A stretch of DNA of 64,000 nt, taken from contig JANWZB010000001.1 in NCBI GenBank assembly GCA_025055035.1, forward strand, positions 4,785 through 68,784, given 5' to 3'. Shown piece by piece: positions 5,162 through 54,107 of this stretch. The notes beneath the pieces were generated by a model. The model ran no database searches. It was not told where the DNA came from and saw only the letters and a list, made by a program, of their open reading frames with translations. How positions within the stretch are numbered: the stretch's first letter is position 1; every line of letters begins with the position of its first letter. The stretch is from Candidatus Kapaibacterium sp. (GTDB lineage Bacteria; Bacteroidota; Ignavibacteria; Kapaibacteriales; UBA4661). The translations under genes and the position numbers were made by a program.

Positions 5162-5641
5162 TTATACGTGTGCTCGCATGTACTCAGCAGCTCGTCGTAC
5201 AGCAGAGCGTATGCGCACGTAGCACCCACAGCGGCAATAGTTACTTGCTAGAGCATTATCAATCTCGTCGTCTGTTGGGCTAGGATTATCGCGGAGCAAA
5301 GCGGCAGCAGTCATGATTTGGCCGCTGATACACCACGCACACTGCGGAACTTGCTCATCAATAAATGCTTGCTGGACGGGATGTAAGATTTCTGTTCCGT
5401 CCTCACCGAGCTGCGCTAAGCCTTCTATGGTTGTGATTATTTGTCCAAGAGCAGCGCCAACTGGTGTTACGCACGAGCGTACTGGTACACCATTGATATG
5501 AATTGTGCATGAACCACATATTCCCGCCCCACAACCCATCTTTGTGCCTGTGAGTCCTAGATCGTCACGCAGTATCCATACGAGCATTTCACTCGAGTCG
5601 CAATGAACAGTGTATGTTCTGCCATTGATGTGCAAATCCAT
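5162..5641 (-). CDS. (2Fe-2S)-binding small subunit (IorA-like)
   Basis: Two Cys clusters CGAGICGSC and CAWC...CRCGCY. The in-frame upstream extension to 5773 is hydrophobic and could be a membrane anchor. The conservative start at MDLHINGRTY is used. Confidence 0.8.
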   Translation of the reverse strand: MDLHINGRTYTVHCDSSEMLVWILRDDLGLTGTKMGCGAGICGSCTIHINGVPVRSCVTPVGAALGQIITTIEGLAQLGEDGTEILHPVQQAFIDEQVPQCAWCISGQIMTAAALLRDNPSPTDDEIDNALASNYCRCGCYVRIRSAVRRAAEYMRAHV

Positions 5642-5808
5642 TGTGCAACTCCAAAACATTGCAAACAACAGCATTGCTAGAATAGCACTTGCGGCTGCAA
5701 CATACATTGGATTTTGGTAAGGAGCAAGGAAAATACAGGGCGTATTTACAAAAAAAATACCGCAAAGGCGCATAAAATCTTGATTTTCATATATGCGTAT
5801 CTGTATTC

Positions 5809-7866
5809 CTATTTTGGCAGTGCATACTCGACGACAAGACCCATAGCGTACATGCGGCCTTCTGGAGTTGCATCATCAAAAATGCGCTTCTGCGAGATTG
5901 TTGTGGAAGAGGATATGTCCTGAAAATTTATGAGCCTCTGTAATAAGCCATCGCGGTGAGTGTAGTATACATGTGGTCTGTCGATGTCCACATACTGCTG
6001 AGACTGCTGTATTATTAGTGCGATCTTGCGTAGTGTGTCGTTGGGTGTATTGTGCAAAAGGATAGAGCGTTCTTCGCGTATGTGCGGGGGCTCTTCGACG
6101 ACTTTCAATGTAACGAGCGGAGCTTCAAATCTATTGTTTGTAATATCATCAATCGTAAGCCTCATGCTGAGTTCATCGGCGCTTACAGGAGGATGAGTGC
6201 GGATATCCCATGTGTATGTTTGTGGAGCTGGTGCTTGCCCTTGAGCAGCGTGAATTGTCAATGCCTCGCGCTGAGTAAACTGAAAAATTTCTAAATCCCA
6301 TTGTTTTAAGCCTTGTCCAGCAACAATTTCTAGGTCGAGCTGCAGTCGCTCTGGAACAGTGAATCGGCGCTCAATATTGAGAATAACATCCTCTAAGAGC
6401 CCTTCTGAATTTGCTGATAGTTGAGCACTGCGTAACTCATCATGTCTTGTGATTGGGATATGATGAGGTGCTGAGAGAACTTTGTGGGAAATGATGATTT
6501 GCTCGCGGGGAATGCGCCAAACATTATACAGATAGCTTGCAACTGCTGTCGCACGTGCTTCAGCAAGGCGCTGCGGTTGCTGTTCGTAGTCAAGTGCTGT
6601 ACCAGTGATTGTGAGCATGCTTTTAGCAGCGTTGCGCAAGCGGTAGCCAATGATATTGATAATCTGATAATACACTGTAGCTATGAGCTTTTCAGAGCTC
6701 AAAGAACTTGCCGCAGAGCTTGTATTCAAAGCTTCTGGAGAAAACCTGCTGGCATCAGAGCTTGAGGTAAGCACTTTATAGCGCGAAGGTATAATACTAG
6801 AGTTCTCAGCAAAGAATATCATTGGTAGCAAAGCAATGCGCTGCGTTGTAGGTATTCTTTTCAGGCGAATGGCGAATGCAGCGGTCGGTCGAACATCTCT
6901 GTTCCCCGTAGCAGCAATAGTATACGAGATAGTATCGGAGGGTTGACTCTGACTATTGGCAATGGGTCGTATAGCAGTAATTCTTGCTTTTAGCTCTTTT
7001 TTGCGCGCTTCCTGTGCTTCCGCAAGTGCCTGCTGTGCAATTGCTTGTGCTTGCCGTAAACTGTCTTGGAAGCGTTGCTCAAGTTCTGCAGGGGTCAAAT
7101 CAGTTGTGCGGTAAGGAGAAAATTTAAGCGAGAAACCAAGACGGAGCGATGCGATTCTCCAATCAATATCGGGGATAACTGACCGCAGCGGAAGAGCATA
7201 GAATGCCTCGAGTGAGGGAAGTATTGTTCCTGCTTGATTGACTTGAAGCTCAAGTGCTGCTCCACCAACAAGCGCAATCTGAAGAGGCGATACTCCGGGT
7301 AGAATACCAGTGCTGCCGTTGAACGTTCGTTGGCCATTAGTGTAGGTGATATCGTCTGGTTCGATAATGCGCTCTCGATATTGATAGGCAGATTGCACAA
7401 ATGTGCCTACCTGTATGCCAAGCGATGCTGTTAAACGCCTAAGATATCGTGCTGTTACTGTTGGTTCAAACATAAAGGCAGATAACGATGTTTCAAGCTC
7501 ATGGCGGATTGTTGCCGTACCTCCTGCGATACGGACACGCTCAAGTGCTGTGAGATTCGCTCCCACGTTGTGGAAATATAATGCCCTGCCGGTAGCACTG
7601 ATAGTCAAGGCATTGTCGAGTTTTACAATAGGATATTCACCAAGAGCACCAATACTCCATCCCTGAGCAGAAGTGCCTCCATACTGTTGTTGACAGCAAG
7701 AAGGAATACCTGGTATGGTACTAAAGTTTGCGTAATGCTGGTGTATCATGTATGAGGCACTCAAACCAAAGCGTAGTGCTGTCGTGTCAGCGACTTGTGC
7801 ACAAAGAGCACAAAGAGAAAGAGATATTGCTACGTTTATTGTAGCTATAGTGAGAGCTGTGTTCAT
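5809..7866 (-). CDS. hypothetical secreted or outer-membrane protein with a possible OmpA-like segment and a coiled-coil stretch
   Basis: Signal-peptide-like N-terminus after trimming to MNTALTIATINVAISLSLCALCAQ. Alternating beta-strand-like region, a coiled coil (ELEQRFQDSLRQAQAIAQQALAEAQEARKKELKA), and a stretch RLAEARATAVASYL resembling OmpA C-terminal domains. Confidence 0.4.
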   Translation of the reverse strand: MNTALTIATINVAISLSLCALCAQVADTTALRFGLSASYMIHQHYANFSTIPGIPSCCQQQYGGTSAQGWSIGALGEYPIVKLDNALTISATGRALYFHNVGANLTALERVRIAGGTATIRHELETSLSAFMFEPTVTARYLRRLTASLGIQVGTFVQSAYQYRERIIEPDDITYTNGQRTFNGSTGILPGVSPLQIALVGGAALELQVNQAGTILPSLEAFYALPLRSVIPDIDWRIASLRLGFSLKFSPYRTTDLTPAELEQRFQDSLRQAQAIAQQALAEAQEARKKELKARITAIRPIANSQSQPSDTISYTIAATGNRDVRPTAAFAIRLKRIPTTQRIALLPMIFFAENSSIIPSRYKVLTSSSDASRFSPEALNTSSAASSLSSEKLIATVYYQIINIIGYRLRNAAKSMLTITGTALDYEQQPQRLAEARATAVASYLYNVWRIPREQIIISHKVLSAPHHIPITRHDELRSAQLSANSEGLLEDVILNIERRFTVPERLQLDLEIVAGQGLKQWDLEIFQFTQREALTIHAAQGQAPAPQTYTWDIRTHPPVSADELSMRLTIDDITNNRFEAPLVTLKVVEEPPHIREERSILLHNTPNDTLRKIALIIQQSQQYVDIDRPHVYYTHRDGLLQRLINFQDISSSTTISQKRIFDDATPEGRMYAMGLVVEYALPK

Positions 7867-7945: not shown

Positions 7946-10132
7946 TTACGTATCTAGAGCCTTTCTTCCTATGAGGAAGTAGGTATTCATATATCCTTTA
8001 CTCTTTATTTCAATGCTACCACGTTCTTCAAAAGCAAATGTATCTCGGAGGGATCGATACACTGCCTCAGAGCAATGTATTCGCCTAGGTTCACCGTGAG
8101 ATTCCATACGACTTGCTGTGTTGACGGTATCACCCCACAAATCATACGTAAATCTATTTTGACCAATAACTCCTGCTGTTGCTTCGCCACAGTGAATACC
8201 AATGCGTAAGGATAAGTCCATATTAAGAAACTCAGCGCAGCGTTGGATTTCTTGCATCATTTCCAGAGCAAGGTCTGCCATAGCGACAAGATGGTCAGGA
8301 CGTGATGATGTAGAAAGCCCTCCGGCAACCATATATGCATCGCCAATAGTCTTAATTTTTTCTAGCCCGTAGTTTTGCGTGAGCGTGTCGAATGAAGAAA
8401 ACACGACATTCAGCATATCTACAAGCTCTCGTGGACTAATATGGGCAGATAGCTTAGTAAAACCAACAATATCAGCAAACATGACACCTACATTCGACAG
8501 ACCATCTGCAATACTCCCTTCCCCTTTCTTTAAGCGCTCGGCAATAGTTTCAGGTAAGATACTCTTCAGTAGATGATCGGATTTTTCACGCTCACGCTGA
8601 ATTTGAGCAATATACAGGTGTTGCTGACGGCGAATCTGATACAACTCGTGATGGAACTTCAAGCGCGCAAGGATTTCTGCTTTTTGGAATGGCTTAATGA
8701 TATAGTCGGAGCCACCAGCATCAAAGCCCTTTACAATTGCTTCGGTATCGTTTACACCACTCATGAAAATTATAGGAATATCACGTGTAGTAGCTGTATG
8801 CTTCAGCTGGTTACACACATGATATCCATCAATATCGGGCAAAACAACATCGAGAAGAACGATGTCTGGAGTGCGTGTTCTAACAGCCTGTAGGGCTTCT
8901 TGGCCACTTGTTACCAGCATAAGCTCAAACATTTCGTCGTGCAAAATATGCTTGAGCATCGAAAGATTAGTTATCGAATCATCAACTATCAGCAGAAGCG
9001 GCTTTGCCTGTGATTGCTCAAACTTTTCCTCGAAGGACTCACGTACAATCTGTGTCAGTACGGAGCGATGACTATCAGCGTGCGCTGTACTCACAGTAGC
9101 AGGAGCAGTGTTGTCGGAGTATTCATCATGGCTCTGGTCATGATTATATGTAAGAAGCTGCTGCTCAGTCTGTTCATTGCTGGTAATGCTTGCTTCCGCG
9201 CTATTGGTGATGTTTGTGTGTTCTGTCTGCTGGTGCATATCTGGCTGAAATGTGCGGATATCTGGATCTTGACTTTGAGGAAGATACTGCGCCACCCGCA
9301 ACGATTCCTGCACAATCTGGCGTATATCCTGCACATACTTTTTCATTGCGTGCTCTGCAAGGCGAGGAATATCCGTTACTTCTTGCATAAAGCTTTCGAC
9401 CGCGGCAAATCCTTGTACCATCTCGCGCACAGCAAAATGTAGTTCCGATTGACGATTCAGCACGTCAGCTTGTATTTTGCGTATTGCATCGAGATGCTCC
9501 TGTATTGCACTATATTGCTCATACAGTTCTGGCTCTTGCTCGCTCGCATCAGAAGACATCTGTAAAGTATTGGCAATATGCTCAAGAGTTGTTTCAACCT
9601 GCTTCTGTATGAGGTCAAGCTCTGTTCCAAAAATATTGGTGAAATCTTCTCGTAGTAAGTCTGGTAGCGCTAGTTGCAAGGATTCGAAGCTGTGTTGAAA
9701 CTGTTGCTCGAACTGTTGTCCTATGTGTTCCTGCACGACATAGTTAAGCTGCTGTATAAATTCATGTTCCAAGAACTCACGAATCTGCTGAAGCTGTGCT
9801 TGAGCCTGCATTTGCATCTCTCCACTCAACGAGGATTGGAGCACAACAAGCGTATCGTGTAACATTGCTGCAGATTGCTTTGTTTCACCTATCAATGCTT
9901 CGATAGTACCTTGTTCTTTGTGCGATGATTCAAGGATTGTAGTTGCTCGCTGTATATTGAGCATCATTTTCGAAAATGCGCCCTTTAATTCCCCTAGCAT
10001 ATGCGCTTGCTCCGTCAGCATCTGCGCTTGAGCACGTGATGATTGACGCGCTTGCCACACCAGCCACAGTAATACCGCGCTACATATTACAAGGATAGCA
10101 AGCGTACTAGACACTAGACTAAACTCAGACAT
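7946..10132 (-). CDS. membrane-anchored class III adenylate/guanylate cyclase with internal response-regulator receiver domain
   Basis: N-terminal TM helix and a long Q/E-rich coiled coil. Receiver domain LLLIVDDS...DIVLLDVVLPDIDG...DYIIKPF. Cyclase domain with FADIVGFT, KTIGDAYM and WGDTVNTASRMES. Start trimmed to MSEFSL. Confidence 0.8.
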   Translation of the reverse strand: MSEFSLVSSTLAILVICSAVLLWLVWQARQSSRAQAQMLTEQAHMLGELKGAFSKMMLNIQRATTILESSHKEQGTIEALIGETKQSAAMLHDTLVVLQSSLSGEMQMQAQAQLQQIREFLEHEFIQQLNYVVQEHIGQQFEQQFQHSFESLQLALPDLLREDFTNIFGTELDLIQKQVETTLEHIANTLQMSSDASEQEPELYEQYSAIQEHLDAIRKIQADVLNRQSELHFAVREMVQGFAAVESFMQEVTDIPRLAEHAMKKYVQDIRQIVQESLRVAQYLPQSQDPDIRTFQPDMHQQTEHTNITNSAEASITSNEQTEQQLLTYNHDQSHDEYSDNTAPATVSTAHADSHRSVLTQIVRESFEEKFEQSQAKPLLLIVDDSITNLSMLKHILHDEMFELMLVTSGQEALQAVRTRTPDIVLLDVVLPDIDGYHVCNQLKHTATTRDIPIIFMSGVNDTEAIVKGFDAGGSDYIIKPFQKAEILARLKFHHELYQIRRQQHLYIAQIQREREKSDHLLKSILPETIAERLKKGEGSIADGLSNVGVMFADIVGFTKLSAHISPRELVDMLNVVFSSFDTLTQNYGLEKIKTIGDAYMVAGGLSTSSRPDHLVAMADLALEMMQEIQRCAEFLNMDLSLRIGIHCGEATAGVIGQNRFTYDLWGDTVNTASRMESHGEPRRIHCSEAVYRSLRDTFAFEERGSIEIKSKGYMNTYFLIGRKALDT

Positions 10133-10336
10133 ACACCCTCGCACCGAGCAATGAGACAATACCACTGCATAGCAGAAATATACAAATTCATCTCTTCAAA
10201 ATTCTCTGAAAAGCGCCATGAGTACAGATTTTTGACGGAATGTCTACAGCAATAGCAATTTGCCAGATTATTCGATAAGGTGTATTTTTGTAGCCTACAG
10301 GTTGTGTCGTCTGCTATATGTTAAAGGGAGCAATCG

Positions 10337-43649: not shown

Positions 43650-45515
43650 CTACCGCACAATGAGTACAGGGATATTCAGCTCGTAGCGTACGGGCGAAAT
43701 CGTCTTCCCCATGAGCATTCCCAGAAGTCCACGATGTCCATGACCACCCATGACTAGTAGTTCTATCTGGTGCTGCTGTGCAAGGCGAACAATTGCCTTC
43801 GGCACGTTGCCAAATCCAAGTTCACAATAGACTTCGATACCTTCTTTAGATAAAGCATCCGCAACACGCCGCAAATATATATCATCTTCTCGTGCCTCTG
43901 CATCAAATGTTGCCCCCCCATACACGACCCCACCAGCACCCTCTACAACATGAAAAAGATATAACTCAGCATGATGCTGCTTTGCAAGCATCACTGCTTC
44001 ACTGAGCACTTTTTTATCTTTGTCGGAGAATGCAATTGTAACACCAATTTTCTTGTATGATCGTGCTTCAAGCTCTAGACGAGCACCTTCTTCGGGAGTT
44101 GTAAAGACTTTAGGACGCTGTCTGCCACGTGCTGTTCTATCCAGAAAAGGTTTGATAGTAATGTATGCAAGAAGCCCTATCAACACGCTACTCCCAAGCA
44201 GGATAGTTGTTTTTACTAGCCACGATGACGACACTGTAAGCACTGCAGACACCTGCTCCACAACAAGCTGAATATTTAGCGTAATAATTATTGAAGCCAC
44301 AATCCACGCTAGCACTGCAACACACGACCTATTGACAAACTCCCCCATGAGCCGACGGTCTGAGGTAAAATGAATAAGTGGAACAATTGCAAAAGGTAGC
44401 TGCAAACTCAAAATAACTTGGCTAAGAATTAACAACTGGTATGTCCCTGATTCTCCAGCAGTGAGTAATACCCATACCGCTGGCACAATAGCAACCATGC
44501 GCGTTATAAGCCTGCGTAAAAACGGACGTATTCTAAAGTGCAAAAACCCTTCCATCACAATTTGCCCAGCTAGTGTTCCTGTGAGCGTTGAAGATTGACC
44601 CGCAGCCAACAATGCAATGGCAAACAACGTCCCCGCAAGCGTTGTTCCCAGCAAAGGAGAAATAAGCTCATGTGCTTGCTGCAGTTCAGTAACAACAATG
44701 TTGTTCTTGTGAAACGTTGCCGCTGCTAGCACAAGAATTGCAGCATTAACAAAAAATGCCGCGTTCAGCGCAACTACCGAGTCGATTAGGTTATACTTGG
44801 CTGCTGTACGCTTTCCCTGTACAGTAGGCTCAAAGGCTCTTGTTTGAACGAGCGCAGAATGCAGATACAGATTGTGTGGCATGACGGTTGCACCAATGAT
44901 GCCTATTGCTACAAATAATGCTCCTTCAGGCATGTTTGGAAGAAATCCTCGCATCACCTCGTGCGGTTGAGGCTTCGATAGTACAAGCTCTATCACAAAG
45001 CATCCCCCAATCATAGCAACAATAGCAACAATAAATGCCTCAAACTTCCGCACACCAAGGTTCTGAATGAGCAAGAGTAACAACGTATCAACCCCCGCAA
45101 TAATGACTCCCCAAAGTACCGGAATACCAAACAGCAAATTGATGCCTATGGCTGTTCCGAGAACCTCTGCTAGGTCGCAGGCAGCTATAGCTACTTCCGC
45201 TAGAACCCACAGCATATAGGCAATAGGGGTTGGGTAATTATCACGGCAAGCTTGTGCCAGATCACGTCCTGTAACAATCCCTAACCGAGCAGACAGCGTC
45301 TGAAGCAACACCGCCATCATATTCGACATCAATAGCACCCAGACAAGTGCATAACCGAAGCGTGCTCCACCTTCAATATCTGTTGCCCAGTTGCCGGGAT
45401 CCATGTACCCAACACTAACAAGATATGCCGGACCAAAAAATGCAAATATACGTTTCCATCCGCGCTGAGGAAGAGCTACCGTATGTGCTGGTTGTGGTAG
45501 TGATGATGCTTTCAT
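43650..45515 (-). CDS. mntH: NRAMP-family divalent metal (Mn2+/Fe2+) transporter fused to a C-terminal universal stress protein (UspA) domain
   Basis: NRAMP signature GPAYLVSVGYMDPGNWATDIEGG and 11-12 TM helices. C-terminal 150 aa with UspA motifs (LVMGGHGHRGL...NIPVLIVR). Confidence 0.85.
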   Translation of the reverse strand: MKASSLPQPAHTVALPQRGWKRIFAFFGPAYLVSVGYMDPGNWATDIEGGARFGYALVWVLLMSNMMAVLLQTLSARLGIVTGRDLAQACRDNYPTPIAYMLWVLAEVAIAACDLAEVLGTAIGINLLFGIPVLWGVIIAGVDTLLLLLIQNLGVRKFEAFIVAIVAMIGGCFVIELVLSKPQPHEVMRGFLPNMPEGALFVAIGIIGATVMPHNLYLHSALVQTRAFEPTVQGKRTAAKYNLIDSVVALNAAFFVNAAILVLAAATFHKNNIVVTELQQAHELISPLLGTTLAGTLFAIALLAAGQSSTLTGTLAGQIVMEGFLHFRIRPFLRRLITRMVAIVPAVWVLLTAGESGTYQLLILSQVILSLQLPFAIVPLIHFTSDRRLMGEFVNRSCVAVLAWIVASIIITLNIQLVVEQVSAVLTVSSSWLVKTTILLGSSVLIGLLAYITIKPFLDRTARGRQRPKVFTTPEEGARLELEARSYKKIGVTIAFSDKDKKVLSEAVMLAKQHHAELYLFHVVEGAGGVVYGGATFDAEAREDDIYLRRVADALSKEGIEVYCELGFGNVPKAIVRLAQQHQIELLVMGGHGHRGLLGMLMGKTISPVRYELNIPVLIVR

Positions 45516-45799: not shown

Positions 45800-46810
45800 A
45801 TGAGCTTTTGCGCATCTTCAAGAGTACACCTCTTTCAGCTTTTTATAACACACTGGTTATCCATATTGTTCGCATTCTCTGTGTACGCCTACAGAGTGCA
45901 TGCACAGCAGTTTATATCTTCAACAGAGTCCGATATTGTCTATGCTCATGTAAATGGCAAAGATATGCTACTAGACATCTACGTACCCGACAATCCTCAA
46001 AAGTCATCATTTCCTGTGATTGTATGGCTGCATGGCGGCACATGGTTTTCTGGGAGCAAGCGGGGCTTTGGGGTTAACTATGCAGCTTCGATGGTGAAGC
46101 ATGGATTTGTCGTTGTATGTGCAAATTATGTTACAAACGAGCGCTTTCCAGCACAGCTTCACAACTGCAAAGCCGTTATCCGATGGGTACGCGCAAATGC
46201 AGGAAAATTTAGAATGGACACAACAAAGATTGGCGTTTGGGGTGAAGGAGCAGGAGGGCACCTAGCAGCAATGCTTGGCTGCACAGGAGATGTAAAAGTT
46301 GCTACTGTTGGAACAACCACAATGGATATTGAAGGGAACGTCGGACCCCACCTCAACTTCTCAAGCCGCGTTCATGCCGTTGTCGCTTTATATGCACCAA
46401 CTGACTTTCTCAAGATGGACGAGCATGCCGTCGAAGACTGTGCATCACCTGTTATTCACAATCAGCCAACATCACCTGAAGCACTTCTACTGGGAGCAGC
46501 AATCACCACCATACCCGACAAAGTGCAGCTTGCTAATCCAATATTCTACGTTACACCTGACGACCCACCATTTCTTCTTCAGCATGGCACAGCAGACTGC
46601 AATGTACCACCAAATCAAAGCGAGCTTCTCGATGAAGCACTCACAAAAGCTGGTGTACCCTCAACTCTCGACCTGTACGATGGCTATAGGCACTGGGACA
46701 CAGGATTTTACTCATTTGGCAATTTACGGCGTATTCGCACATTCTTCGAGCAGGTTTTCGCACCAAAACCAGCTGCTTCGACTTCCCCCAGCGAAGAGCA
46801 GCCACGTTAA
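45800..46810 (+). CDS. alpha/beta-hydrolase fold esterase/lipase (abhydrolase_3 / BD-FAE-like)
   Basis: HGG oxyanion motif VIVWLHGGTW, nucleophile elbow GEGAGGH, distal HGTAD. Confidence 0.7.
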   Translation: MSFCASSRVHLFQLFITHWLSILFAFSVYAYRVHAQQFISSTESDIVYAHVNGKDMLLDIYVPDNPQKSSFPVIVWLHGGTWFSGSKRGFGVNYAASMVKHGFVVVCANYVTNERFPAQLHNCKAVIRWVRANAGKFRMDTTKIGVWGEGAGGHLAAMLGCTGDVKVATVGTTTMDIEGNVGPHLNFSSRVHAVVALYAPTDFLKMDEHAVEDCASPVIHNQPTSPEALLLGAAITTIPDKVQLANPIFYVTPDDPPFLLQHGTADCNVPPNQSELLDEALTKAGVPSTLDLYDGYRHWDTGFYSFGNLRRIRTFFEQVFAPKPAASTSPSEEQPR

Positions 46811-46838
46811 CCCCAAATTTATATTGCCTGTATACAGT

Positions 46839-47288
46839 ATGCTCACTATCCTTGCTCGGCGTGTAGCCCCAGAGTTTGATGATATTCCGCTGCCAGAATA
46901 TGCTACAAACGGTTCTGCCGGAGCAGATATTCGTGCAGCACTTTCTCACGACGTTCTCATTCCTCCATCTTCCATAGCAACAATACCGACAGGGATTGCT
47001 CTTGAAATACCACCGGGCTATGAGATACAAGTCCGCTCACGCAGTGGCTTGGCAGCACGATACGGAATTTTTTGTTTGAATTCTCCCGGAACAATAGACA
47101 GCGACTTCCGTGGGGAAGTACAGGTCATTCTTGCCAATTTTGGCAAAGAGCCATTTATAGTACGACGAGGCGACCGCATTGCTCAGCTTGTTGTTGCGCG
47201 TTATGAGCACGTACAGTGGCAGGAATCTTCGCATTTAAGCTGTACTGAACGAGGACAGAGCGGATTTGGTAGCACAGGAATACAGTAA
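46839..47288 (+). CDS. dut: dUTP diphosphatase
   Basis: 149 aa with dUTPase motifs AGADIRA, RSGLA, IDSDFRGE, GDRIAQLV and a C-terminal GFGSTG. Confidence 0.9.
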   Translation: MLTILARRVAPEFDDIPLPEYATNGSAGADIRAALSHDVLIPPSSIATIPTGIALEIPPGYEIQVRSRSGLAARYGIFCLNSPGTIDSDFRGEVQVILANFGKEPFIVRRGDRIAQLVVARYEHVQWQESSHLSCTERGQSGFGSTGIQ

Positions 47289-47305
47289 CGACAACACAAA
47301 ATCCT

Positions 47306-47803
47306 ATGAAAGCCCGAAGAGGCACAGCAATTGTTGAAACAGAGCAAGGCATTTTACTCAATGCTATTGCAGGAAATGTATTTCTGCTTCCGGGAGGACG
47401 CGCCACACTTGGCGAGAGCTACATGTGTGCTGCTATCCGTGAATTGCATGAGGAAACAGGGCTACAAGCATACTACGCAATGTACTTATTTTCTTTCCAA
47501 TCCAGAAAAAACAACCATCACGTCTTTTTGATGCAAGCAATTGGGCTTGCTCGCCCTATGAGCGAAATTGAGCGCATCGGATACTATCGTGATGGTCGTA
47601 TCACTAATATCTTCGACAGAAAGGGAATACAGTACCGCGACCTCGACCTTACCCATGTTTCGGATAGTACACGCGATATCCTACGCCTTTATGCACAGTA
47701 TAAACATAACCACGCAGAGTTTTTTCACTTCCTTGCTGATTACACCCATGCTGCTGAGCAGCAATATATGACGCAACCATTTCTTTTGGGCGAACACCTT
47801 TGA
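47306..47803 (+). CDS. Nudix hydrolase
   Basis: Nudix box GGRATLGESYMCAAIRELHEETGL (GX5EX7REUXEEXGU). Confidence 0.8.
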   Translation: MKARRGTAIVETEQGILLNAIAGNVFLLPGGRATLGESYMCAAIRELHEETGLQAYYAMYLFSFQSRKNNHHVFLMQAIGLARPMSEIERIGYYRDGRITNIFDRKGIQYRDLDLTHVSDSTRDILRLYAQYKHNHAEFFHFLADYTHAAEQQYMTQPFLLGEHL

Positions 47804-47823
47804 TACAATCCTCGAGGCTAGTA

Positions 47824-48114
47824 TTAGCATATCCGCATTATTGCGAGAACATAGCCCACAAATCCTACAAATGCACACGAAGGGTGCTTCCACGTCCACG
47901 GTCGACTACGGGGCATATACACCAGCGAGGCAGCTACAATGAGCAAAGAGCAACGAAACGATACAAAGATTGTGATAATGCACGACATGAACACAACAAA
48001 GTAGAGCATATGATGGGCTGAACCAAAATGCCAGAGCCTTGCTTGTGCGATAAGACCAACAAGCATGTTCACACAATACAATCCAAACGCTCCGTACAGA
48101 AGAATATCATTCAT
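47824..48114 (-). CDS. small hypothetical membrane protein (2-3 TM), last gene of the PKS cluster
   Basis: Hydrophobic segments LLYGAFGLYCVNMLVGLIA and YFVVFMSCIITIFVSF. The longer ORF-track version (to 48450) overlaps the methyltransferase gene out of frame and is Cys-rich junk. Confidence 0.3.
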   Translation of the reverse strand: MNDILLYGAFGLYCVNMLVGLIAQARLWHFGSAHHMLYFVVFMSCIITIFVSFRCSLLIVAASLVYMPRSRPWTWKHPSCAFVGFVGYVLAIMRIC

Positions 48115-48146
48115 GAGGATTGTTAGCTTTTCGCGCGCTACATACT

Positions 48147-48695
48147 CTATTTTAGTTCCTGCAACGCCCTTTCCTCGATAGGAATTCGTATAGCAAGCAA
48201 GAGCACAGCATTGACAAGACTCGCAACGATAGCTGTTTTCCATGCAAACACTATCATCGGTACAGCAGCAATCTCTATAGCAACTGCTAGGTAGTTTGGA
48301 TGTTTCCAATATCTGTATGGACCGGCACACACACGCTCTTCCCCCGGCACAACAATAACACGGGTATTCCATGCGTATCCTAGAGATACGATCGCCCAGT
48401 AGCGTAGTACTTGTGCAGCAAGAAAGAGCAGACCGCATATATACGAGCATATGGATTCTAGAGTGTAGCTATGCTTCCACAGCTCAGAGTCATGTACACT
48501 ATACCACCCTTCCACACACCACGCCACTATCCACGCACTATGTAGCAGTACGAATGCTCGATAGTGTTCTCTTCCAAACTCCTTGCCGCCACGTGATAGG
48601 GCATGTGCCCGGTTGCGTTCCGCTAGGTACAGCTCGGAAAGGCGCTGTATGACAATGACACTAGCAAGGCACAACAGTATAGTCAGCATTGTCAT
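48147..48695 (-). CDS. ICMT/PEMT-family membrane methyltransferase (BpsB-like)
   Basis: C-terminal motifs GPYRYWKHPNYL and RIPIEERAL typical of the isoprenylcysteine carboxyl methyltransferase family. Start trimmed to MTMLTIL so it begins 10 nt after the PKS stop. Confidence 0.75.
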   Translation of the reverse strand: MTMLTILLCLASVIVIQRLSELYLAERNRAHALSRGGKEFGREHYRAFVLLHSAWIVAWCVEGWYSVHDSELWKHSYTLESICSYICGLLFLAAQVLRYWAIVSLGYAWNTRVIVVPGEERVCAGPYRYWKHPNYLAVAIEIAAVPMIVFAWKTAIVASLVNAVLLLAIRIPIEERALQELK

Positions 48696-48705
48696 GATAT
48701 CAATA

Positions 48706-49767
48706 CTAGGTGCAAAAGAGCAGAAGTTCTGCACTAAAGCCCGGACCGAGAGCTATCATCATACCAAGCTCGTGAGGTGCAGGGGCAGACCGCATCAATT
48801 CCTGTAACGCAAAAAGCACAGAAACGCTCGACATATTGCCATAGTTCTGCAACACGTGGTATGCTGTGCAGAGATCTTGTTTAGTAAGTTTCAAGCTGTC
48901 TTGGTACGCTTGTAGTACTTTTGCCCCTCCAGCATGAAGAACAAAATGGCGGATTTCTTCTGTACAGATACCCCACGCTGCACAAGCTTCTGCAACTATA
49001 CCGGGAAGATGCTCCGTAATGAGTGTAGGAATATCACGCGCAAAGCGCACCTTGAGACCTGTCTCAATAATGTCCCAGCCCATGATATCCTCAGAGTCAT
49101 CAAATATGTAGCTGTACGATGCAAGGATACGCATTCCTAGTTCCTTGTCTTCTTGTGGCTTCTTTAACACAAGAGCAGCTGCACCGTCAGCAAACAAACT
49201 CGACGCAATAATGTTGGATTTCGAAATATCGTTGCGCTGAAACGTTAGGCTGCATAATTCAACAGCAGTACATAAGCCGTATGAGCCATCCGGCATTGCC
49301 GATAGAAGCTCTGCAGCTCTAGCTAATCCAGCTACTCCACCAGCACAGCCTAGACCCCACACCGGTACTCGCTTGACTGTTCGAGGCAAGCATAGTGCTT
49401 GTATCAGCTTAGCATCCAGACTCGGTGTGGCAATGCCTGTTGTTGATACTGCCACAACCATGCTAATATCCTCGCGTTGTATACCAGCATTCTGTATTGC
49501 GCTATTCGAAGCGTTAACAAGGAGCTTTATGGCAGTTTCCACAAAAAGATTGCTAGATTCTACAAAGCTTCGCTGCTGTTCAAACCAAGACAGCGGCTGC
49601 GAAAAGTACCGGCTTGTAATCTGTGTATTCTCAAATACAGGCATAAGCCGCTGCAAGCCTTGATACTCGCCTGAAAAGAGCCTGTATACAAGCTCCCTAA
49701 CATCGTGCTGCGAGACTTTATACGGAGGAAGAGCAGTGGCGATACTCTGTACAAGAATAGGAATCAT
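48706..49767 (-). CDS. type III polyketide synthase (chalcone/stilbene synthase superfamily, BpsA/RppA-like)
   Basis: Catalytic Cys in GLGCAGGVAGL, His in HAGGAKVL, Asn in GNMSSVSV, and a C-terminal GPGFS motif. Confidence 0.88.
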   Translation of the reverse strand: MIPILVQSIATALPPYKVSQHDVRELVYRLFSGEYQGLQRLMPVFENTQITSRYFSQPLSWFEQQRSFVESSNLFVETAIKLLVNASNSAIQNAGIQREDISMVVAVSTTGIATPSLDAKLIQALCLPRTVKRVPVWGLGCAGGVAGLARAAELLSAMPDGSYGLCTAVELCSLTFQRNDISKSNIIASSLFADGAAALVLKKPQEDKELGMRILASYSYIFDDSEDIMGWDIIETGLKVRFARDIPTLITEHLPGIVAEACAAWGICTEEIRHFVLHAGGAKVLQAYQDSLKLTKQDLCTAYHVLQNYGNMSSVSVLFALQELMRSAPAPHELGMMIALGPGFSAELLLFCT

Positions 49768-49799
49768 ATGCGCACGCTCACAACAGCCCTACGATAGCA

Positions 49800-50600
49800 C
49801 TATACATCATTTTCTGGAATTTGGCAAGTGTTACGAAAGGCAAGCTGCGAGACTGTTTTGCGTTGATTGCTCGTCCAATCAATGCGCGGGCGTTCGCGCT
49901 GCTCTGGGAGATAACCAAGACGATATATCGCCATAAGCTCTAAATCATCTGGAACGCAAAGCAACATTTTCAGTTCCTCCCATGCCTCAGGAATTTCCAT
50001 CGGTGTAGAAATAAATTGCATGCCCATACCCAGCTCACAGGTTGTTAGCCAGATATTTTCTATCGCCATTCCCAACGATAAAATACAGTACAACGCAGAG
50101 AGCTCTCCGGGGATGTATTCGTCCTTCTTCAGCAGTGCAGCCAACAGCAGAGGGCTAGCAGCTACAAGCTTTGTATTATCTGCCCCTAGTATCTTCGGTA
50201 CTCCCACACTCCGCATAATGCTCAATGCTGTGTCAGTAAACATATGCTTTATGAATGGACGCAGAGCAGGAGGAAGTTGGTCTATGAAAATGCCATCGCG
50301 CCGTTCTTCCATTTCTTGATGAGTAAATCGGAAGTACTTCTTGTAGCGAGCAAAGAACTTCCCTTCGTCGATAAGCTGTGTCATTGTGCGACCAGCAATA
50401 TCGGAGATACGGAAGCGAACTGCCTCGTCGTCAATCAGCACAAAACGCCACGGCTGAGAGTTAAAGTGACTTGGAGCACGGCTTGCTGCTTCAATAAGCA
50501 AGTGCTGATGCTCACGTGACACAGGGTCGGGCTTGAAGTACCCGTTTGTTGTGCGGCGTGTGCGAATAGCATCGAGAAGCTCCATACCATCCATTGGCAA
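49800..50600 (-). CDS. nitroreductase-superfamily flavoprotein
   Basis: [18 protein letters not shown] signature. 266 aa, larger than classical NfsB. First gene of the PKS cluster. Confidence 0.75.
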
Positions 50601-50716
50601 GGATTATCGTACAAATACTGGCTTTGTAATGGCTAAATATACGCAAATTTCGTAGAATCGCTGTGCAAGCTTGATACTGCCTTTCAAGGTATCACCGGAA
50701 TTTCCCACGAGCGCCC

Positions 50717-53272
50717 TTATGAGTACTGTGCTGCAACAACGGACTGCTTTGCTTTGCGTGCATCCGTAAACCGATTTGTTGTGTTAATAAGGCGCATTGC
50801 CAGAGTAAAGATGAGTTTTTTGGCAATGGTAGGATTATTGTGCACCAGTTCGTCGATAGTGCAGTCGTAGTGTGTAATAACAGAATCAGTTTTCGCGATA
50901 ATTGTCGCTGTGCGAGCTTCATTGGTAATTTCGCTCATTTCGCCGAAGATTGTCTCAGGGACACTAAATTCAGTAATTTTGACACCCTCCTTAAATACTT
51001 CCACAACGCCTGAATGCATGATAAAGAATCCCCGTCCCTTTTCTCCTTCCTTCATAATGATATCACCTTTCTTCGCATGGATGCGTTCTTCGCGGTACTG
51101 CCGTGCTGCCGAGGTAAGCAGCTCTGTCTTCTGCATCGAAGACGCTTGGCCTGAAAGCGTAGCTATACTCTTGTATTCATCGGGTACACGAGCAACATCT
51201 TCCAAAGCTGCAGAACGGTCTAACCGAAACCGTGCAACGAGCTTATTGAGTTGTTCTGTGATAGAAGCAAGGTGATTGATAGTTTGTGCAACGCGCTCAG
51301 TCTCTTGGGCAGATTGCGAGGCAGTCGAGGCAATATTTTCTACGCTTGTCAAGATATGAAGACTTGTCGCAGATTGCTCTTCTGTTGCCGAAGCGATTTG
51401 GCTAATGCGGTCAAGTACAGACTGCGAACTTTCGATAATCTCTCGGAGCGCTACCCCTGCCGAATCAGCAAGAGCAATGCCTTCTCTCACACGGTTGCTA
51501 CTAGCATACATTAGTGATGTCGCACTTTCAATATCCTTAAGGATTTGGTCAAGCATTGCGCTAATTTGCTTTGTTGCTGTTGATGTTTGCTCGGCAAGGC
51601 GTGCAATTTCATCAGCAACAACAGCAAACCCGCGCCCTTGTTCGCCAGCTCGTGCAGCTTCGATAGCAGCATTCAGTGCTAGAAGGTTCGTGCGTTTCGC
51701 AATAGCCTCGATAGTTTGAATAATCTTGCCTATATCTTTGCTCGATGTCCCAAGATTTTCGATGTTGATAGCAGAGCTTTTGACTACATCAGCGAGCGAG
51801 CGAATGTTTTCAACGGCTTGTGCCACTACAAAACCGCCTTCAGCAGCCACTTTGCTATTGTCAGCAGCAAATTTGGTTGTCTCGCTAGCATTGCGTGCAC
51901 TGTGTGTAATTGCCTTGTTCATTTCTTCGAGTGCAGTGTTCACCTCATCAGATTGTACCCATTGCTTCTGTGCCCAGAATACTAATGCTTCTTTCGACTC
52001 ATTAATTTGCTTTGCAACGCGGCGGGTAAGCTCCACTGCCTCGATAACTTCTATCATCATTCTGCGGATATTGCCCACAACTTCATTAAATCCAGCATAT
52101 AAGCGCCCAATGTCATCAGAGCTAGAAACCTGCAGTTGTACGGTCAAGTCGCCCTGAGCAAGAGCTTGCATCTCATGCAAAATCGTCGATACACTCGTAT
52201 TCAAATATGCGCTCTGCGATTCAAGCTGATGCAACGTCTTATTGAGTTCTTCCTGTTGACGAAGCAAATTATTCTGCTGCGCAATGATCTTGGTATTGGA
52301 TTCGCGCAGCGTTGTTGCCATGCTATTGAATGCATGGGCAAGTGCCCCAATTTCGTCGTTGGAGCGTACGTGAACAATCTGTGTTTGTCCGCTTGCTAGC
52401 GCTTCTGTAGCATGTTTCAGCTCGAGCACAGGCCGCACAAGACTTCGCGCAAGGAAAAATGCTATGGGTAGCCCTGTCAGAAAGGCAAGAGCAATAACGC
52501 TGTACATCAGGCGTTCTGATGTTGCTGCCACGACACTTTTTTCCTCAATCATGTGTTTGCTTGTGCCGAGAGCATCCGACTCAATAGTGTAAAGCCTCAG
52601 TGATAGGGTATCAAGCCTTTTGAACACTGCTGAGAGTTTTTTGAATGTTGTGCGGTAATGGTCTATGAGCGATGCGGCACTTGCTTTTGTTGCAATAGGC
52701 AAAGATGATGTAGCCACACCTGCTTCGAGCACTGCTATGTCTTCATCAAATTCTTTAATATGCTTTTCCAGCTTGCGCATAATAAAGTTTTTCTCATCAC
52801 GGCGCACCTGAAGCAGCATAAGATTCAACTCGGTAAGTCGAATCTCTTCAAACAAATCCTCCAAATCGTGTGCACTTTTGCGGAATGCTCCTTCAATACC
52901 ACTATTTTCCGTTAAGCCACGCTCTTGCATTGTTTCAGCAAACATGTGCCATAGCTTTTGATACTGTTCAAGCACAGATTGCAGTGCTATTCGCTCGTGT
53001 TCTACAATCATCTCGGACAGCACAGCATTTCCTTGCTGCAAAAGAGTGTTATTCTGGTGTATGTAGCTTTCTTTACGTGTCGTCGTAAAATCAACGCGAT
53101 TGGAGCGTAGGTTCAGAATAGTATTCGCTAGTGTTTGAATCCTATTCAGTTCGTCCATAAGCCGCGCCTGCCTATATGCAAAGAATGCTACAATCGCCGT
53201 GAATGCACCCATTATACCGGCAAGACCAAAAATCTTCACAAATAGCGACACAGAGCGTATCTTGTCCAGCAT
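50717..53272 (-). CDS. methyl-accepting chemotaxis protein with two HAMP-like segments and a C-terminal cyclic-nucleotide-binding (CAP effector) domain
   Basis: Two TM helices flanking a helical sensor region. HAMP ([14 protein letters not shown]). MCP signalling hairpin ([34 protein letters not shown]). C-terminal cNMP-binding domain ([24 protein letters not shown]...FGEMS...RTATIIA). Confidence 0.85.
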
Positions 53273-53393
53273 AGCACACGTATTTGATACTGTGAATATA
53301 ATCTCCGCATTGCAACACAGGTGCGTTATTGTGCTGCATTACGTGCAACGTACAAGGTAAGATACAAAACCTTTGTTTTTCTTTTTGCATTTT

Positions 53394-54107
53394 TTAGCGT
53401 TTGTGCTGCTCGATAACATCACCTTGATGAATACGCACAATGCGTTGTAGCATCTGTGCAGTGTCGCTGCTATGTGTTGCCATGATTAGCGTTACTCCCC
53501 GCTCTTTGGCAAGCTGTACAAGAAGGTGCAGCACCGTTGTTCCAGTCTCTTCATCAAGATTACCTGTTGGCTCATCAGCAAGCACTATCATAGGGCGATG
53601 TACTAATGCGCGAACAATCGCAATGCGCTGTTGCTCTCCACCGGATAAGCGGTCAGGGAACGATGTGCGCCGTTCATACAGACCAACATACTGCAACAGT
53701 TCAAGAGCCTCTTGCGTGTGCGCTGCATCGACGAGACCATTCAGCTCCAAAGGAAGGAAGATATTCTCCTCTACTGTAAGCGTCGGAATGAGATGAAAAA
53801 ACTGAAAGACAAATCCAATATTCCGACGACGAAACATTGTGCGATCGTGCTCAGAAAGGCGATAGATGCTAGTGTTGTTGAGTACAACCGTTCCCGTATC
53901 GGGTGTATCTATACCCGACAGCATATTCAAAAGTGTTGATTTCCCCGAACCACTTTTCCCTACTAGAGCAACCGTCTCACCCTTCTGCACCTGCAGCGAA
54001 ATATTGCGCAGAACCTCCCGCTGAGAGTCTCCTTCCCGATACGATTTGCTAAGATTCTCAACGAGAAGAAAAGGGCATGGAATTGTTTCATGTATGTTAT
54101 GCAGCAT
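53394..54107 (-). CDS. ABC transporter ATP-binding protein (LolD/MacB/FtsE-like), no adjacent permease gene
   Basis: Walker A GKSGSGKST, signature LSGGEQQR, Walker B MIVLADEPTGNLD, H-loop. Confidence 0.85.
   Translation of the reverse strand: MLHNIHETIPCPFLLVENLSKSYREGDSQREVLRNISLQVQKGETVALVGKSGSGKSTLLNMLSGIDTPDTGTVVLNNTSIYRLSEHDRTMFRRRNIGFVFQFFHLIPTLTVEENIFLPLELNGLVDAAHTQEALELLQYVGLYERRTSFPDRLSGGEQQRIAIVRALVHRPMIVLADEPTGNLDEETGTTVLHLLVQLAKERGVTLIMATHSSDTAQMLQRIVRIHQGDVIEQHKR

Follow-up and report, generated by a model that had tools for sequence, protein, structure and literature searches.

[quoted passage not shown] One described source is the BpsAB/DquAB module, a type III PKS and an ICMT-family methyltransferase that together give alkylpyrone and alkylresorcinol methyl ethers (PMC9827899). 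The DquA-type enzymes of this module are self-sufficient in vitro and, despite their "resorcinol" tryptophan, gave only pyrones in E. coli. In operons from Streptomyces and mycobacteria, the PKS product is taken on to alkylbenzoquinones (polyketide quinones) by a methyltransferase together with an oxidoreductase or hydroxylase. Picocyanobacterial HidABC and a planctomycetal operon encode what is described only as a putative methyltransferase, and an oxidoreductase whose role is unresolved.

Here we compare with these systems a locus found in a 64,000-nt stretch of Candidatus Kapaibacterium sp. DNA (hereafter the window). Four co-oriented minus-strand ORFs, lying where an initial sequence-only reading had placed them, encode a nitroreductase-fold flavoprotein (NTR), a type III PKS, an ICMT-family methyltransferase and a small membrane protein (Table 1). 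The PKS–ICMT pair is the known part of this locus, corresponding to the BpsAB/DquAB module, and the flavoprotein is its new part. Our main reading, to which we assign a probability of about 0.5, is that the four genes form one operon, whose product is a tailored phenolic lipid of the membrane, with NTR as the redox tailoring enzyme of the PKS product.

Table 1. The cassette genes and the spacer upstream of them (window positions)
Feature	Position	Strand	Description
Nitroreductase-fold flavoprotein (NTR)	49800..50585	-	261 aa from ATG 50585; first cassette gene
Type III PKS	48706..49767	-	353 aa; probably of the long-chain alkylpyrone/alkylresorcinol synthase clade (Pks11/BpsA/DquA-like)
ICMT/PEMT-family integral-membrane methyltransferase	48147..48695	-	182 aa from ATG 48695; BpsB/DquB equivalent
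Small four-helix-bundle membrane protein	47824..48114	-	96 aa from ATG 48114; family without annotation
Intergenic region, MCP stop to flavoprotein start	50586..50716	-	131 nt

Layout and components of the cassette

The cassette is flanked by an MCP gene and a NUDIX hydrolase gene, and its internal gaps are as short as the sequence-only reading had described: 32 nt between NTR and PKS, 10 nt between PKS and ICMT, and 32 nt between ICMT and the small protein. A 208-aa ORF at 47824-48450, out of frame over the ICMT gene, was discarded as an ORF-calling artefact. The spacer between the MCP and NTR genes would be the place for a cassette promoter, unless transcription of the MCP gene reads through. 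The sigma-70-like match within it (50630-50603) is weak, at 9/12, and is not evidence of function. A terminator scan found no terminator after the MCP gene and, across positions 47000-54000, returned 7 terminator-like sites versus 6.9 ± 2.2 in shuffles, i.e. no excess. Strong terminators inside the cluster would have spoken against a shared transcript; the sites found there are weak stems of 5-6 bp. Because the promoter and terminator scan was not better than shuffles, the argument for co-transcription draws solely on spacing and synteny. Scanning the whole window with Rfam gave no match to an RNA family. The four co-oriented genes make up a genuine cassette, which would build a membrane phenolic lipid.

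The PKS carries both domains of its family (PF00195 Chal_sti_synt_N, 66.5 bits; PF02797 Chal_sti_synt_C, 69 bits; cutoff 27 each) and an intact Cys141/His278/Asn311 triad. None of these three residues varies among 21 homologs, and W231 is likewise invariant. The closest solved structure is Pks11 of M. tuberculosis (PDB 4jao), matched over residues 7-350 at E=3.5e-58. The triad aligns with Cys138 and the corresponding His and Asn of Pks11, and it is precisely at the cysteine column that 4jat, the entry for the C138S mutant, departs from the alignment; the active-site cysteine, a residue that might have proved missing on alignment, is thus in place against both Pks11 and the 21 homologs. Judged by its two domains and its triad, the protein is a type III (chalcone synthase-like) PKS, which bears out the earlier assignment; likewise, all families then named for a profile search (PF00195/PF02797, PF04140 and PF00881) are matched above their gathering cutoffs. 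The PKS is 53% identical to a DquA-type ortholog from Sporomusa acidovorans (P0045), and its homologs carry the JGI label "alkylresorcinol/alkylpyrone synthase". Its putative placement in the BpsA/DquA clade was judged through the Sporomusa protein and Negativicutes sequences.

The methyltransferase scores 96.8 bits against PF04140 (cutoff 24) and 31.2 bits against PF04191. Against the protein-prenylcysteine methyltransferase equivalog it scores 28, where the cutoff is 160, which fits a small-molecule substrate. No relative among solved structures was found at E<=0.01. As had been noted from the sequence, its ATG (48695) follows the end of the PKS stop codon (48706) by 10 nt, in the BpsA-BpsB arrangement. 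The same pairing recurs elsewhere: an ICMT gene lies directly downstream of the PKS gene in 66 of 69 PKS-seeded loci and in 59 of the 65 NTR-seeded loci having room for it. The Sporomusa locus consists of PKS and ICMT only.

The flavoprotein matches PF00881 at 82.3 bits (cutoff 23.5), over its full length and with FMN-binding motifs, and its assignment to the nitroreductase superfamily stands. The length first given for it, 266 aa, probably does not: that figure takes TTG 50600 as the start and describes the longest possible form of an ORF that can also be extended to ATG 50594, and the start is most likely the one in Table 1, which agrees with the deposited protein P0121 and with homolog N-termini. 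NTR represents a distinct and highly conserved family with a BluB-like C-terminal extension and an insert of ~75 residues (roughly 68-145) that matches no solved structure. By profile and by structure, its closest characterized relatives are BluB and IYD (iodotyrosine deiodinase). Orthology to BluB was nonetheless rejected, with 58.6 bits against the BluB model TIGR02476 falling below the equivalog cutoff of 150, and with the catalytic Asp32 of BluB replaced by Thr15 at what is an ordinary phosphate-binding position. At the position of BluB Ser167, the NTR family has an invariant Ser inside the motif QFVSTPME. The Acg/Rv3131 family (NF047509; a two-lobed monomer of ~320 aa) was also considered and was rejected when judged by its subfamily score cutoff and this architecture. 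The AF2 model of NTR is moderate (pLDDT 73) and covers a single chain, whereas the protein is an obligate dimer; given this and the insert's lack of a solved counterpart, the active site is not readable from the model.

The fourth protein is identical to a deposited hypothetical protein (P0241). It had been read as a small 2-TM protein, but its AF2 model gives a four-helix bundle (pLDDT 94.9). Loop 1 has 2.4 K+R and loop 3 has 1.9, and each of the other three regions has <=0.24. Four positions are invariant (G20, H34, H77 and G84) and a fifth, H35, almost so; the histidines sit where helices 2 and 4 end on the cytoplasmic side. Exhaustive HMMER searching of 1.84 billion proteins recovered 46 representative clusters of this family, whose members are nearly all 65-138 aa long and none of which is fused to a recognizable partner; a word-index protein search had returned three relatives only. 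The protein has no Pfam match, and the ORF is supported because it is conserved across loci and clusters.

Linkage of the flavoprotein to the synthase across genomes

At least 417 species-level genomes encode a member of the NTR family, with hosts among the Kapabacteria/Ignavibacteria, Anaerolineae, Meiothermus/Calidithermus and Nannocystaceae; Meiothermus, Calidithermus, Plesiocystis and Enhygromyxa are among those in culture. A PKS gene, of the clade of the window PKS, lies downstream of NTR in 77 of the best 80 NTR-seeded loci, directly in 72 and past one inserted ORF in 5, so that the idea of close homologs never co-occurring fails decisively. Seen from the synthase, NTR is present in 14 of the 56 PKS-seeded loci with enough upstream sequence. 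This asymmetry (77/80 versus 14/56) indicates that NTR depends on the PKS and not vice versa, as fits a dedicated tailoring enzyme. PKS loci lacking NTR show nothing conserved beyond the PKS and ICMT genes. In a neighbor-joining tree without support values, the PKSs of NTR-less Negativicutes loci fall within the NTR-linked PKS radiation.

Pairwise identities of NTR and PKS are correlated across loci (r=0.91), the two proteins diverging in step. NTR is the most constrained of the three enzymes, with a mean identity of 69% compared with 49% for PKS and 49% for ICMT. In four loci (L006, L007, L021 and L030) the NTR-PKS pair is kept without ICMT, a pattern that points to the PKS product itself as the target of NTR. 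The HMM of the small protein matches in 41 of 84 loci (4 PKS-seeded, 80 NTR-seeded); among the 80 NTR-seeded cassettes the protein is found in 37, of which 33 have it upstream of NTR and 4 have it downstream, and it was not found in any NTR-less locus. Being missing from about half of the cassettes, it is therefore not essential. Together, the NTR and small-protein families travel with such lipid synthases in several bacterial phyla.

Other neighbors do not belong to the unit. The sequence-only reading had set the cluster directly downstream of a cNMP-binding MCP, an adjacency that is not conserved in relatives: MCP homologs lie 1.7-6 kb off in three loci (L006, L008 and L010) and are absent elsewhere, and the MCP gene of the window is an incidental neighbor. 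An acyl-CoA ligase gene, present upstream of NTR in 30 loci, was rejected as a fifth component, its synteny running on into housekeeping genes and the window having no such gene there. The nearest relatives also have an extra 150-aa membrane ORF, which is missing from the window. What survives of the sequence-only reading is the phenolic-lipid-type PKS cluster with its BpsAB/DquAB pairing; the 2-TM protein is given up.

A candidate pathway and its alternatives

From family membership, the PKS would take a long-chain fatty acyl thioester, extend it with two or three malonyl units and cyclize the chain to an alkylpyrone or alkylresorcinol. The ICMT-family enzyme would then O-methylate a ring hydroxyl at the membrane, for which BpsB provides the precedent. 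NTR, a predicted FMN enzyme whose linkage to the PKS is observed across genomes, would redox-modify the head group of the PKS product. The most likely form of this step would be an O2-dependent hydroxylation or oxidation of the electron-rich ring to an alkyl hydroquinone or quinone, in which NTR would take the role of the unrelated FAD hydroxylases SrsC and PkqC of actinobacterial operons. The small protein may serve as an optional partner of NTR, its conserved histidine cluster facing the cytoplasm; its role might be to dock NTR to the membrane, to offer it the head group of the lipid, or to bind metal or haem.

Oxidation of the ring to a quinone by NTR is plausible by analogy with those operons. 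Enzymes of the nitroreductase fold are familiar chiefly as catalysts of reductions driven by NAD(P)H, with BluB as the only member known to put O2 to productive use. BluB (5,6-dimethylbenzimidazole synthase) activates O2 on reduced flavin, IYD performs one-electron chemistry on a phenol ring, and the fold kinship of NTR with both makes O2-dependent or one-electron chemistry plausible for NTR as well. Against a quinone product stands that a pyrone is a poorer substrate, and that pyrones were all that DquA-type enzymes gave in E. coli, "resorcinol" Trp notwithstanding. We also considered, as a decidedly speculative extension, that menaquinone-type bacteria use the NTR-PKS(-ICMT) cassette to produce a redox-active quinone lipid of polyketide origin, its ring hydroxylated by a new O2-activating branch of BluB/IYD-related nitroreductases and the small protein acting as a membrane metal- or haem-binding electron or substrate partner. 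The phyla concerned number at least four (Deinococcota, Chloroflexota, Ignavibacteriota/Kapabacteria and Myxococcota).

Alternatively, NTR may be an NAD(P)H reductase, which either reduces a C=C bond or enone of the pyrone or polyketide head group or holds a spontaneously oxidized alkylquinone as the hydroquinone; in the latter case it would be a dedicated quinone reductase with a protective or respiratory function. Most nitroreductase-fold enzymes are reductases, and one of them, CLA-ER, carries out such a C=C or enone reduction on oxo-fatty acids. Neither BluB nor IYD uses NAD(P)H directly, however, and these are the closest relatives of NTR by profile and structure. Nor would one expect 65-80% conservation across phyla, a big family-specific insert or 96% linkage to a PKS in a reductase with a generic protective function. 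We therefore regard a reductase role as possible but doubtful.

It is unlikely that NTR acts earlier, before or during polyketide assembly, on the fatty acyl starter (e.g. by desaturation) or on the enzyme-bound poly-beta-keto intermediate so as to alter the ring type. Precedents for such chemistry exist, in that substrate dehydrogenation is carried out by the nitroreductase-fold enzymes cyclodipeptide oxidase and azoline oxidase, and chalcone reductase acts with chalcone synthase on the bound poly-beta-keto intermediate. Yet those oxidase-type members of the fold are more distant from NTR than are BluB and IYD, the majority of PKS-ICMT loci in this clade do without an NTR-like partner, and the DquA-type enzymes need none in vitro. 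The acyl-CoA ligase neighborhood, too, belongs to a longer lineage-specific synteny. Finally, although PKS-ICMT alone is the commonest arrangement among PKS-seeded loci, an ordinary BpsAB-like two-gene locus with NTR and the small ORF as unrelated neighbors is very improbable, given that the NTR-PKS adjacency (77/80) spans at least four phyla with differing flanking genes, that the pair diverges in step, that the small protein is confined to NTR-bearing cassettes, and that identities of 35-80% exclude recent copies of a single mobile element.

Redox tailoring of the PKS product by NTR is thus the reading we carry forward. The literature searched contains no link between type III PKSs of this kind and a nitroreductase, in agreement with the earlier suggestion that a nitroreductase-fold enzyme in a ring-oxidizing role would be new, and we found no description there of either the NTR or the small-protein family. 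The cassette would accordingly represent a widespread form of pathway, in at least 417 species-level genomes, for which we found no description, and would connect this fold to such chemistry. Should NTR hydroxylate the ring, it would provide a second productive O2-using activity in the nitroreductase superfamily, after BluB, and polyketide quinones would extend well beyond actinobacteria; reduction of the ring would instead be expected to give a new lipid head group. For genome mining, a ten-residue NTR motif (letters not shown) and QF[VI]STPME beside a type III PKS can serve as a marker, and the cassette itself is a tractable four-gene set for expression.

Comparison with known systems

At the level of single proteins, Pks11 shares aligned catalytic residues with the window PKS and makes long-chain alkylpyrones, but the identity between the two is moderate only and the mycobacterial genomic context differs. 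NTR differs from BluB and IYD in its additional, highly conserved ~75-residue insert, and its context is a PKS where that of BluB is cobalamin synthesis.

At the level of operons, HidABC of picocyanobacteria (hierridins) and the planctomycetal operon resemble the cassette as conserved three-gene phenolic-lipid operons across phyla. Their order is methyltransferase-oxidoreductase-PKS with an FAD-dependent oxidoreductase, whereas the window has the order NTR, PKS, ICMT, small protein and no FAD oxidoreductase. SrsABC of Streptomyces griseus and PkqABC of Mycobacterium smegmatis and Streptomyces sp. MNU77 likewise place a flavin oxidoreductase gene in an operon with those for a PKS and a methyltransferase. 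There, a membrane phenolic lipid is oxidized to a quinone, a step that is proposed for the window cassette. The gene order also differs, and where the source describes an oxidoreductase or hydroxylase, the window flavoprotein is a PF00881 protein placed first in the operon. The oxidoreductase of the SrsABC and PkqABC operons is FAD-dependent; a hydroxylase of the SrsC/PkqC type is absent from the window cassette, in which the PF00881 nitroreductase is the sole flavoprotein.

The window also resembles BpsA/BpsB of Bacillus subtilis and DquA/DquB of Dendrosporobacter and other Sporomusaceae, in which, too, the PKS gene is followed immediately by the ICMT gene and the PKS has the Cys/His/Asn triad as well as the conserved MGW-motif Trp. 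These systems comprise two genes only and belong to spore-forming Firmicutes. The window cassette, hosted by Kapabacteria/Ignavibacteria-type relatives of Bacteroidota, adds NTR before the PKS and a four-helix protein after the ICMT.

The cassette and its surroundings

Between positions 47824 and 50600, inspection of open reading frames (ORFs) in the window reveals four genes, all on the minus strand and in the same orientation, separated in gene order by gaps of 32, 10, and 32 nt. They encode a nitroreductase-fold flavoprotein (NTR), a type III polyketide synthase (PKS), a methyltransferase (ICMT), and a small membrane protein. These ORFs, their short gaps, and matches to PF00881, PF00195, PF02797, and PF04140 bear out the cluster proposed in the sequence-only reading, including the spacing and family of its methyltransferase. 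Coordinates were refined by examining start codons and by comparing the products with deposited proteins. The nitroreductase-superfamily assignment of the flavoprotein stood. Its length is most likely 261 aa and not the proposed 266 aa; the longer ORF, starting at TTG 50600, is a mechanical maximum only.

Features of the window, with coordinates and supporting matches
Feature	Position	Strand	Remarks
Adenylate/guanylate cyclase fused to response regulator	7946-10165	-	
SbcC/Rad50-like ORF, 1149 aa	28792-32241	-	Contains the strongly negative AT skew of 30-32 kb
Nramp metal transporter with C-terminal universal stress protein domain	43650-45515	-	621-aa fusion
BD-FAE esterase, dUTPase, NUDIX hydrolase block	45800-47803	+	Convergent on cassette; syntenic in close relative L001
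Small hydrophobic protein, 96 aa	47824-48114	-	No Pfam family
ICMT/PEMT-family membrane methyltransferase	48147-48695	-	PF04140, 96.8 bits; 10 nt past PKS stop
Type III PKS	48706-49767	-	PF00195 and PF02797 both present
Flavoprotein, nitroreductase superfamily	49800-50585	-	PF00881, 82.3 bits; 261 aa
Chemoreceptor (MCP), 851 aa	50717-53272	-	Two HAMP, MCP signalling domain, C-terminal cyclic-nucleotide-binding domain

Only weak terminator-like hairpins lie inside the cluster, and such hairpins show no excess (7 vs 6.9 in shuffled sequence). An Rfam scan found no RNA family in the window, whose proteins have their nearest relatives in Kapabacteria and Ignavibacteria. The convergent esterase/dUTPase/NUDIX block represents lineage synteny outside the cassette. 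The adjacency of the chemoreceptor, noted in the sequence-only reading, is incidental, as its homologues in relatives (62-73% identical) lie near the cassette without adjoining it. Together with the response-regulator-fused cyclase, this chemoreceptor suggests cNMP-modulated chemotaxis.

Linkage of the flavoprotein family to the PKS

By sequence comparison, the flavoprotein family is sharply defined. At 65-80% identity to the window protein it takes in more than 120 database clusters, with hosts in Kapabacteria, Ignavibacteria, Anaerolineae/Chloroflexota, Myxococcales, and others, and an alignment of 20 sequences has a mean column identity of 73% and long invariant motifs. A scan seeded with this alignment, in which each species was represented by a single genome, recovered relatives in 417 genomes, from which the best 80 loci (NTR-seeded) were used for synteny counts. 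The PKS is directly downstream on the same strand in 72 of these 80 (median gap 30 nt) and follows one inserted 150-aa membrane ORF in another 5, while 3 have no nearby PKS. The coherence of the cluster thus extends to related genomes (77/80). The ICMT gene comes directly after the PKS in 59 of 65 loci with room for it, and the NTR-PKS pair is retained without it in L006, L007, L021, and L030. Cultured hosts of the cassette include Meiothermus, Calidithermus, Plesiocystis pacifica, and Enhygromyxa salina, and the flanking genes vary from phylum to phylum. These synteny data exclude fortuitous adjacency, a reading to which we give almost no weight.

For the converse, scanning metagenomes with the PKS as seed yielded 80 loci (39-59% identity to the PKS), and the flavoprotein is present in only 14 of the 56 with enough upstream sequence. 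The dependence is therefore one-way, of the flavoprotein family on the PKS, which is the pattern of a dedicated tailoring enzyme. Pairwise identities of the two proteins are correlated (r=0.91), and the flavoprotein is the most constrained cassette gene (mean identity 69%, against 49% for both PKS and ICMT). In a simple NJ tree without support values, PKSs of Negativicutes lacking the flavoprotein nest inside the NTR-linked radiation, suggesting that this partner was gained or lost more than once.

Several loci differ in gene content. In L029, L039, and L083, the flavoprotein is 64-69% identical and the sequence examined contains no type III PKS, which may lie elsewhere in the genome; alternatively, the enzyme may serve a different purpose in these genomes. 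In the cassettes most closely related to that of the window (L001, at 5518-5970, L005, L008, L009, L010, and L012), flavoprotein and PKS are separated by an additional multi-TM ORF of 150 aa; it is absent from the window and has weak DUF3995/CAAD matches only. In 30 NTR-seeded loci of Ignavibacteria/Kapabacteria type (e.g. L013:8190-10000), the gene immediately preceding the flavoprotein, in the same orientation, encodes an AMP-binding acyl-CoA ligase of ~600 aa; the genes beyond it are also syntenic, so lineage and function are inseparable.

Enzymes, small protein, and proposed chemistry

The PKS active site is intact as judged by alignment: C141, H278, and N311 are invariant among 21 homologues, and in the alignment with M. 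tuberculosis Pks11, the closest solved structure (E=3.5e-58), they fall on the catalytic residues, in agreement with the Cys-His-Asn triad recognized earlier.

FMN-type motifs of the fold (R13, T15, and APSHF.SQPWRF) are invariant across the 20 aligned flavoproteins, and the window protein falls under the curated cutoff of every NCBIfam model: it reaches 58.6 for BluB (cutoff 150) and 68.5 bits for the mycobacterial dormancy-regulon family Acg/Rv3131 (cutoff 199). The latter match spans residues 56-239 (insert and C-terminal half), and a distant tie between the flavoprotein family and Acg/Rv3131, both uncharacterised, is possible. By family profile, the best solved relative is BluB (E=3e-15), with a match taking in the N-terminal half and C-terminal extension. 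The flavoprotein is nonetheless not a BluB, because the position of the catalytic Asp32 is Thr; that of Ser167 is an invariant Ser inside QFVSTPME. A highly conserved insert of ~75 residues (~68-145), matched by no solved structure, separates the two halves of the fold and is taken to be a substrate lid.

BluB is the sole fold member known to use O2 productively, and iodotyrosine deiodinase (IYD) performs one-electron flavin chemistry on a phenol ring. By analogy with these precedents, redox chemistry at an electron-rich head group, whether resorcinol or pyrone, is plausible. We favor, with a probability of roughly 0.5, a pathway in which the PKS would make a long-chain alkylpyrone or alkylresorcinol, the ICMT would O-methylate it, and the flavoenzyme would carry out redox tailoring of the head group; the likeliest reactions are a hydroxylation or an oxidation leading to a hydroquinone or quinone. 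The small protein would assist at the membrane. The quinone-forming role put forward in the sequence-only reading is accordingly a putative one. Most members of the fold are reductases, which lends some credit to reduction of an enone or quinone, though we think this rather unlikely. Action on the starter or an enzyme-bound intermediate seems more doubtful still.

The small protein, to which the head-group tailoring pathway would assign an assisting role, had been described as having two transmembrane segments. Its AF2 model (25 family members, pLDDT 94.9) instead predicts four helices (2-24, 31-51, 55-69, and 76-92). An exhaustive HMMER search of 1.84 billion proteins found only 46 representative clusters, nearly all members being 65-138 aa, with no recognisable fusion partner among these clusters. 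G20, H34, H77, and G84 are invariant and H35 nearly so. Across the family, Lys+Arg average 2.4 in loop 1 and 1.9 in loop 3 (≤0.24 in the other three regions), which by the positive-inside rule would place the histidines at the cytoplasmic ends of helices 2 and 4, the working side of flavoprotein and PKS. Of the 80 NTR-seeded loci, 33 (Meiothermus, Calidithermus, Nannocystaceae, some Anaerolineae) have this gene just ahead of the flavoprotein, 4 have it downstream, the same side as in the window, and 42 lack it; in the window's clade it follows the ICMT. In the PKS-seeded set it occurs only where the flavoprotein is present or the contig is cut.

Relation to known phenolic-lipid systems

The order of a type III PKS and then an ICMT-type methyltransferase is that of BpsA/BpsB in Bacillus and DquA/DquB in Sporomusaceae; the products of DquA are long-chain tri- and tetraketide alkylpyrones, and BpsB is an O-methyltransferase of the phenolic lipids (PMC9827899). 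The orthologue in Sporomusa acidovorans is 53% identical to the window PKS, and its locus holds PKS and ICMT with no further related gene. ICMT follows the PKS in 66 of 69 PKS-seeded loci with room, upholding the proposed likeness to bpsA-bpsB, and the 61 such loci without the flavoprotein have no other conserved neighbour. The pair is therefore a broad two-gene module, already described.

The combination of PKS, methyltransferase, and flavin oxidoreductase is common to the window cassette, SrsABC/PkqABC (Streptomyces, mycobacteria), and HidABC and its relatives (cyanobacteria, planctomycetes). The oxidoreductase is FAD-type in SrsABC/PkqABC, as it is in HidABC and its planctomycetal relatives. 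Because this defining FAD enzyme is absent, the window cassette is not an operon of either kind. A full-text literature search, covering only a minority of subscription-journal papers and hence no proof of absence, returned no link of such a type III PKS with a nitroreductase-fold enzyme, and none is mentioned in a survey of the alkylpyrone clusters conserved among myxobacteria. The window cassette belongs to the type III PKS and ICMT families and contains the BpsAB/DquAB module: its known part is the PKS-ICMT pair, and its new part is the flavoprotein.
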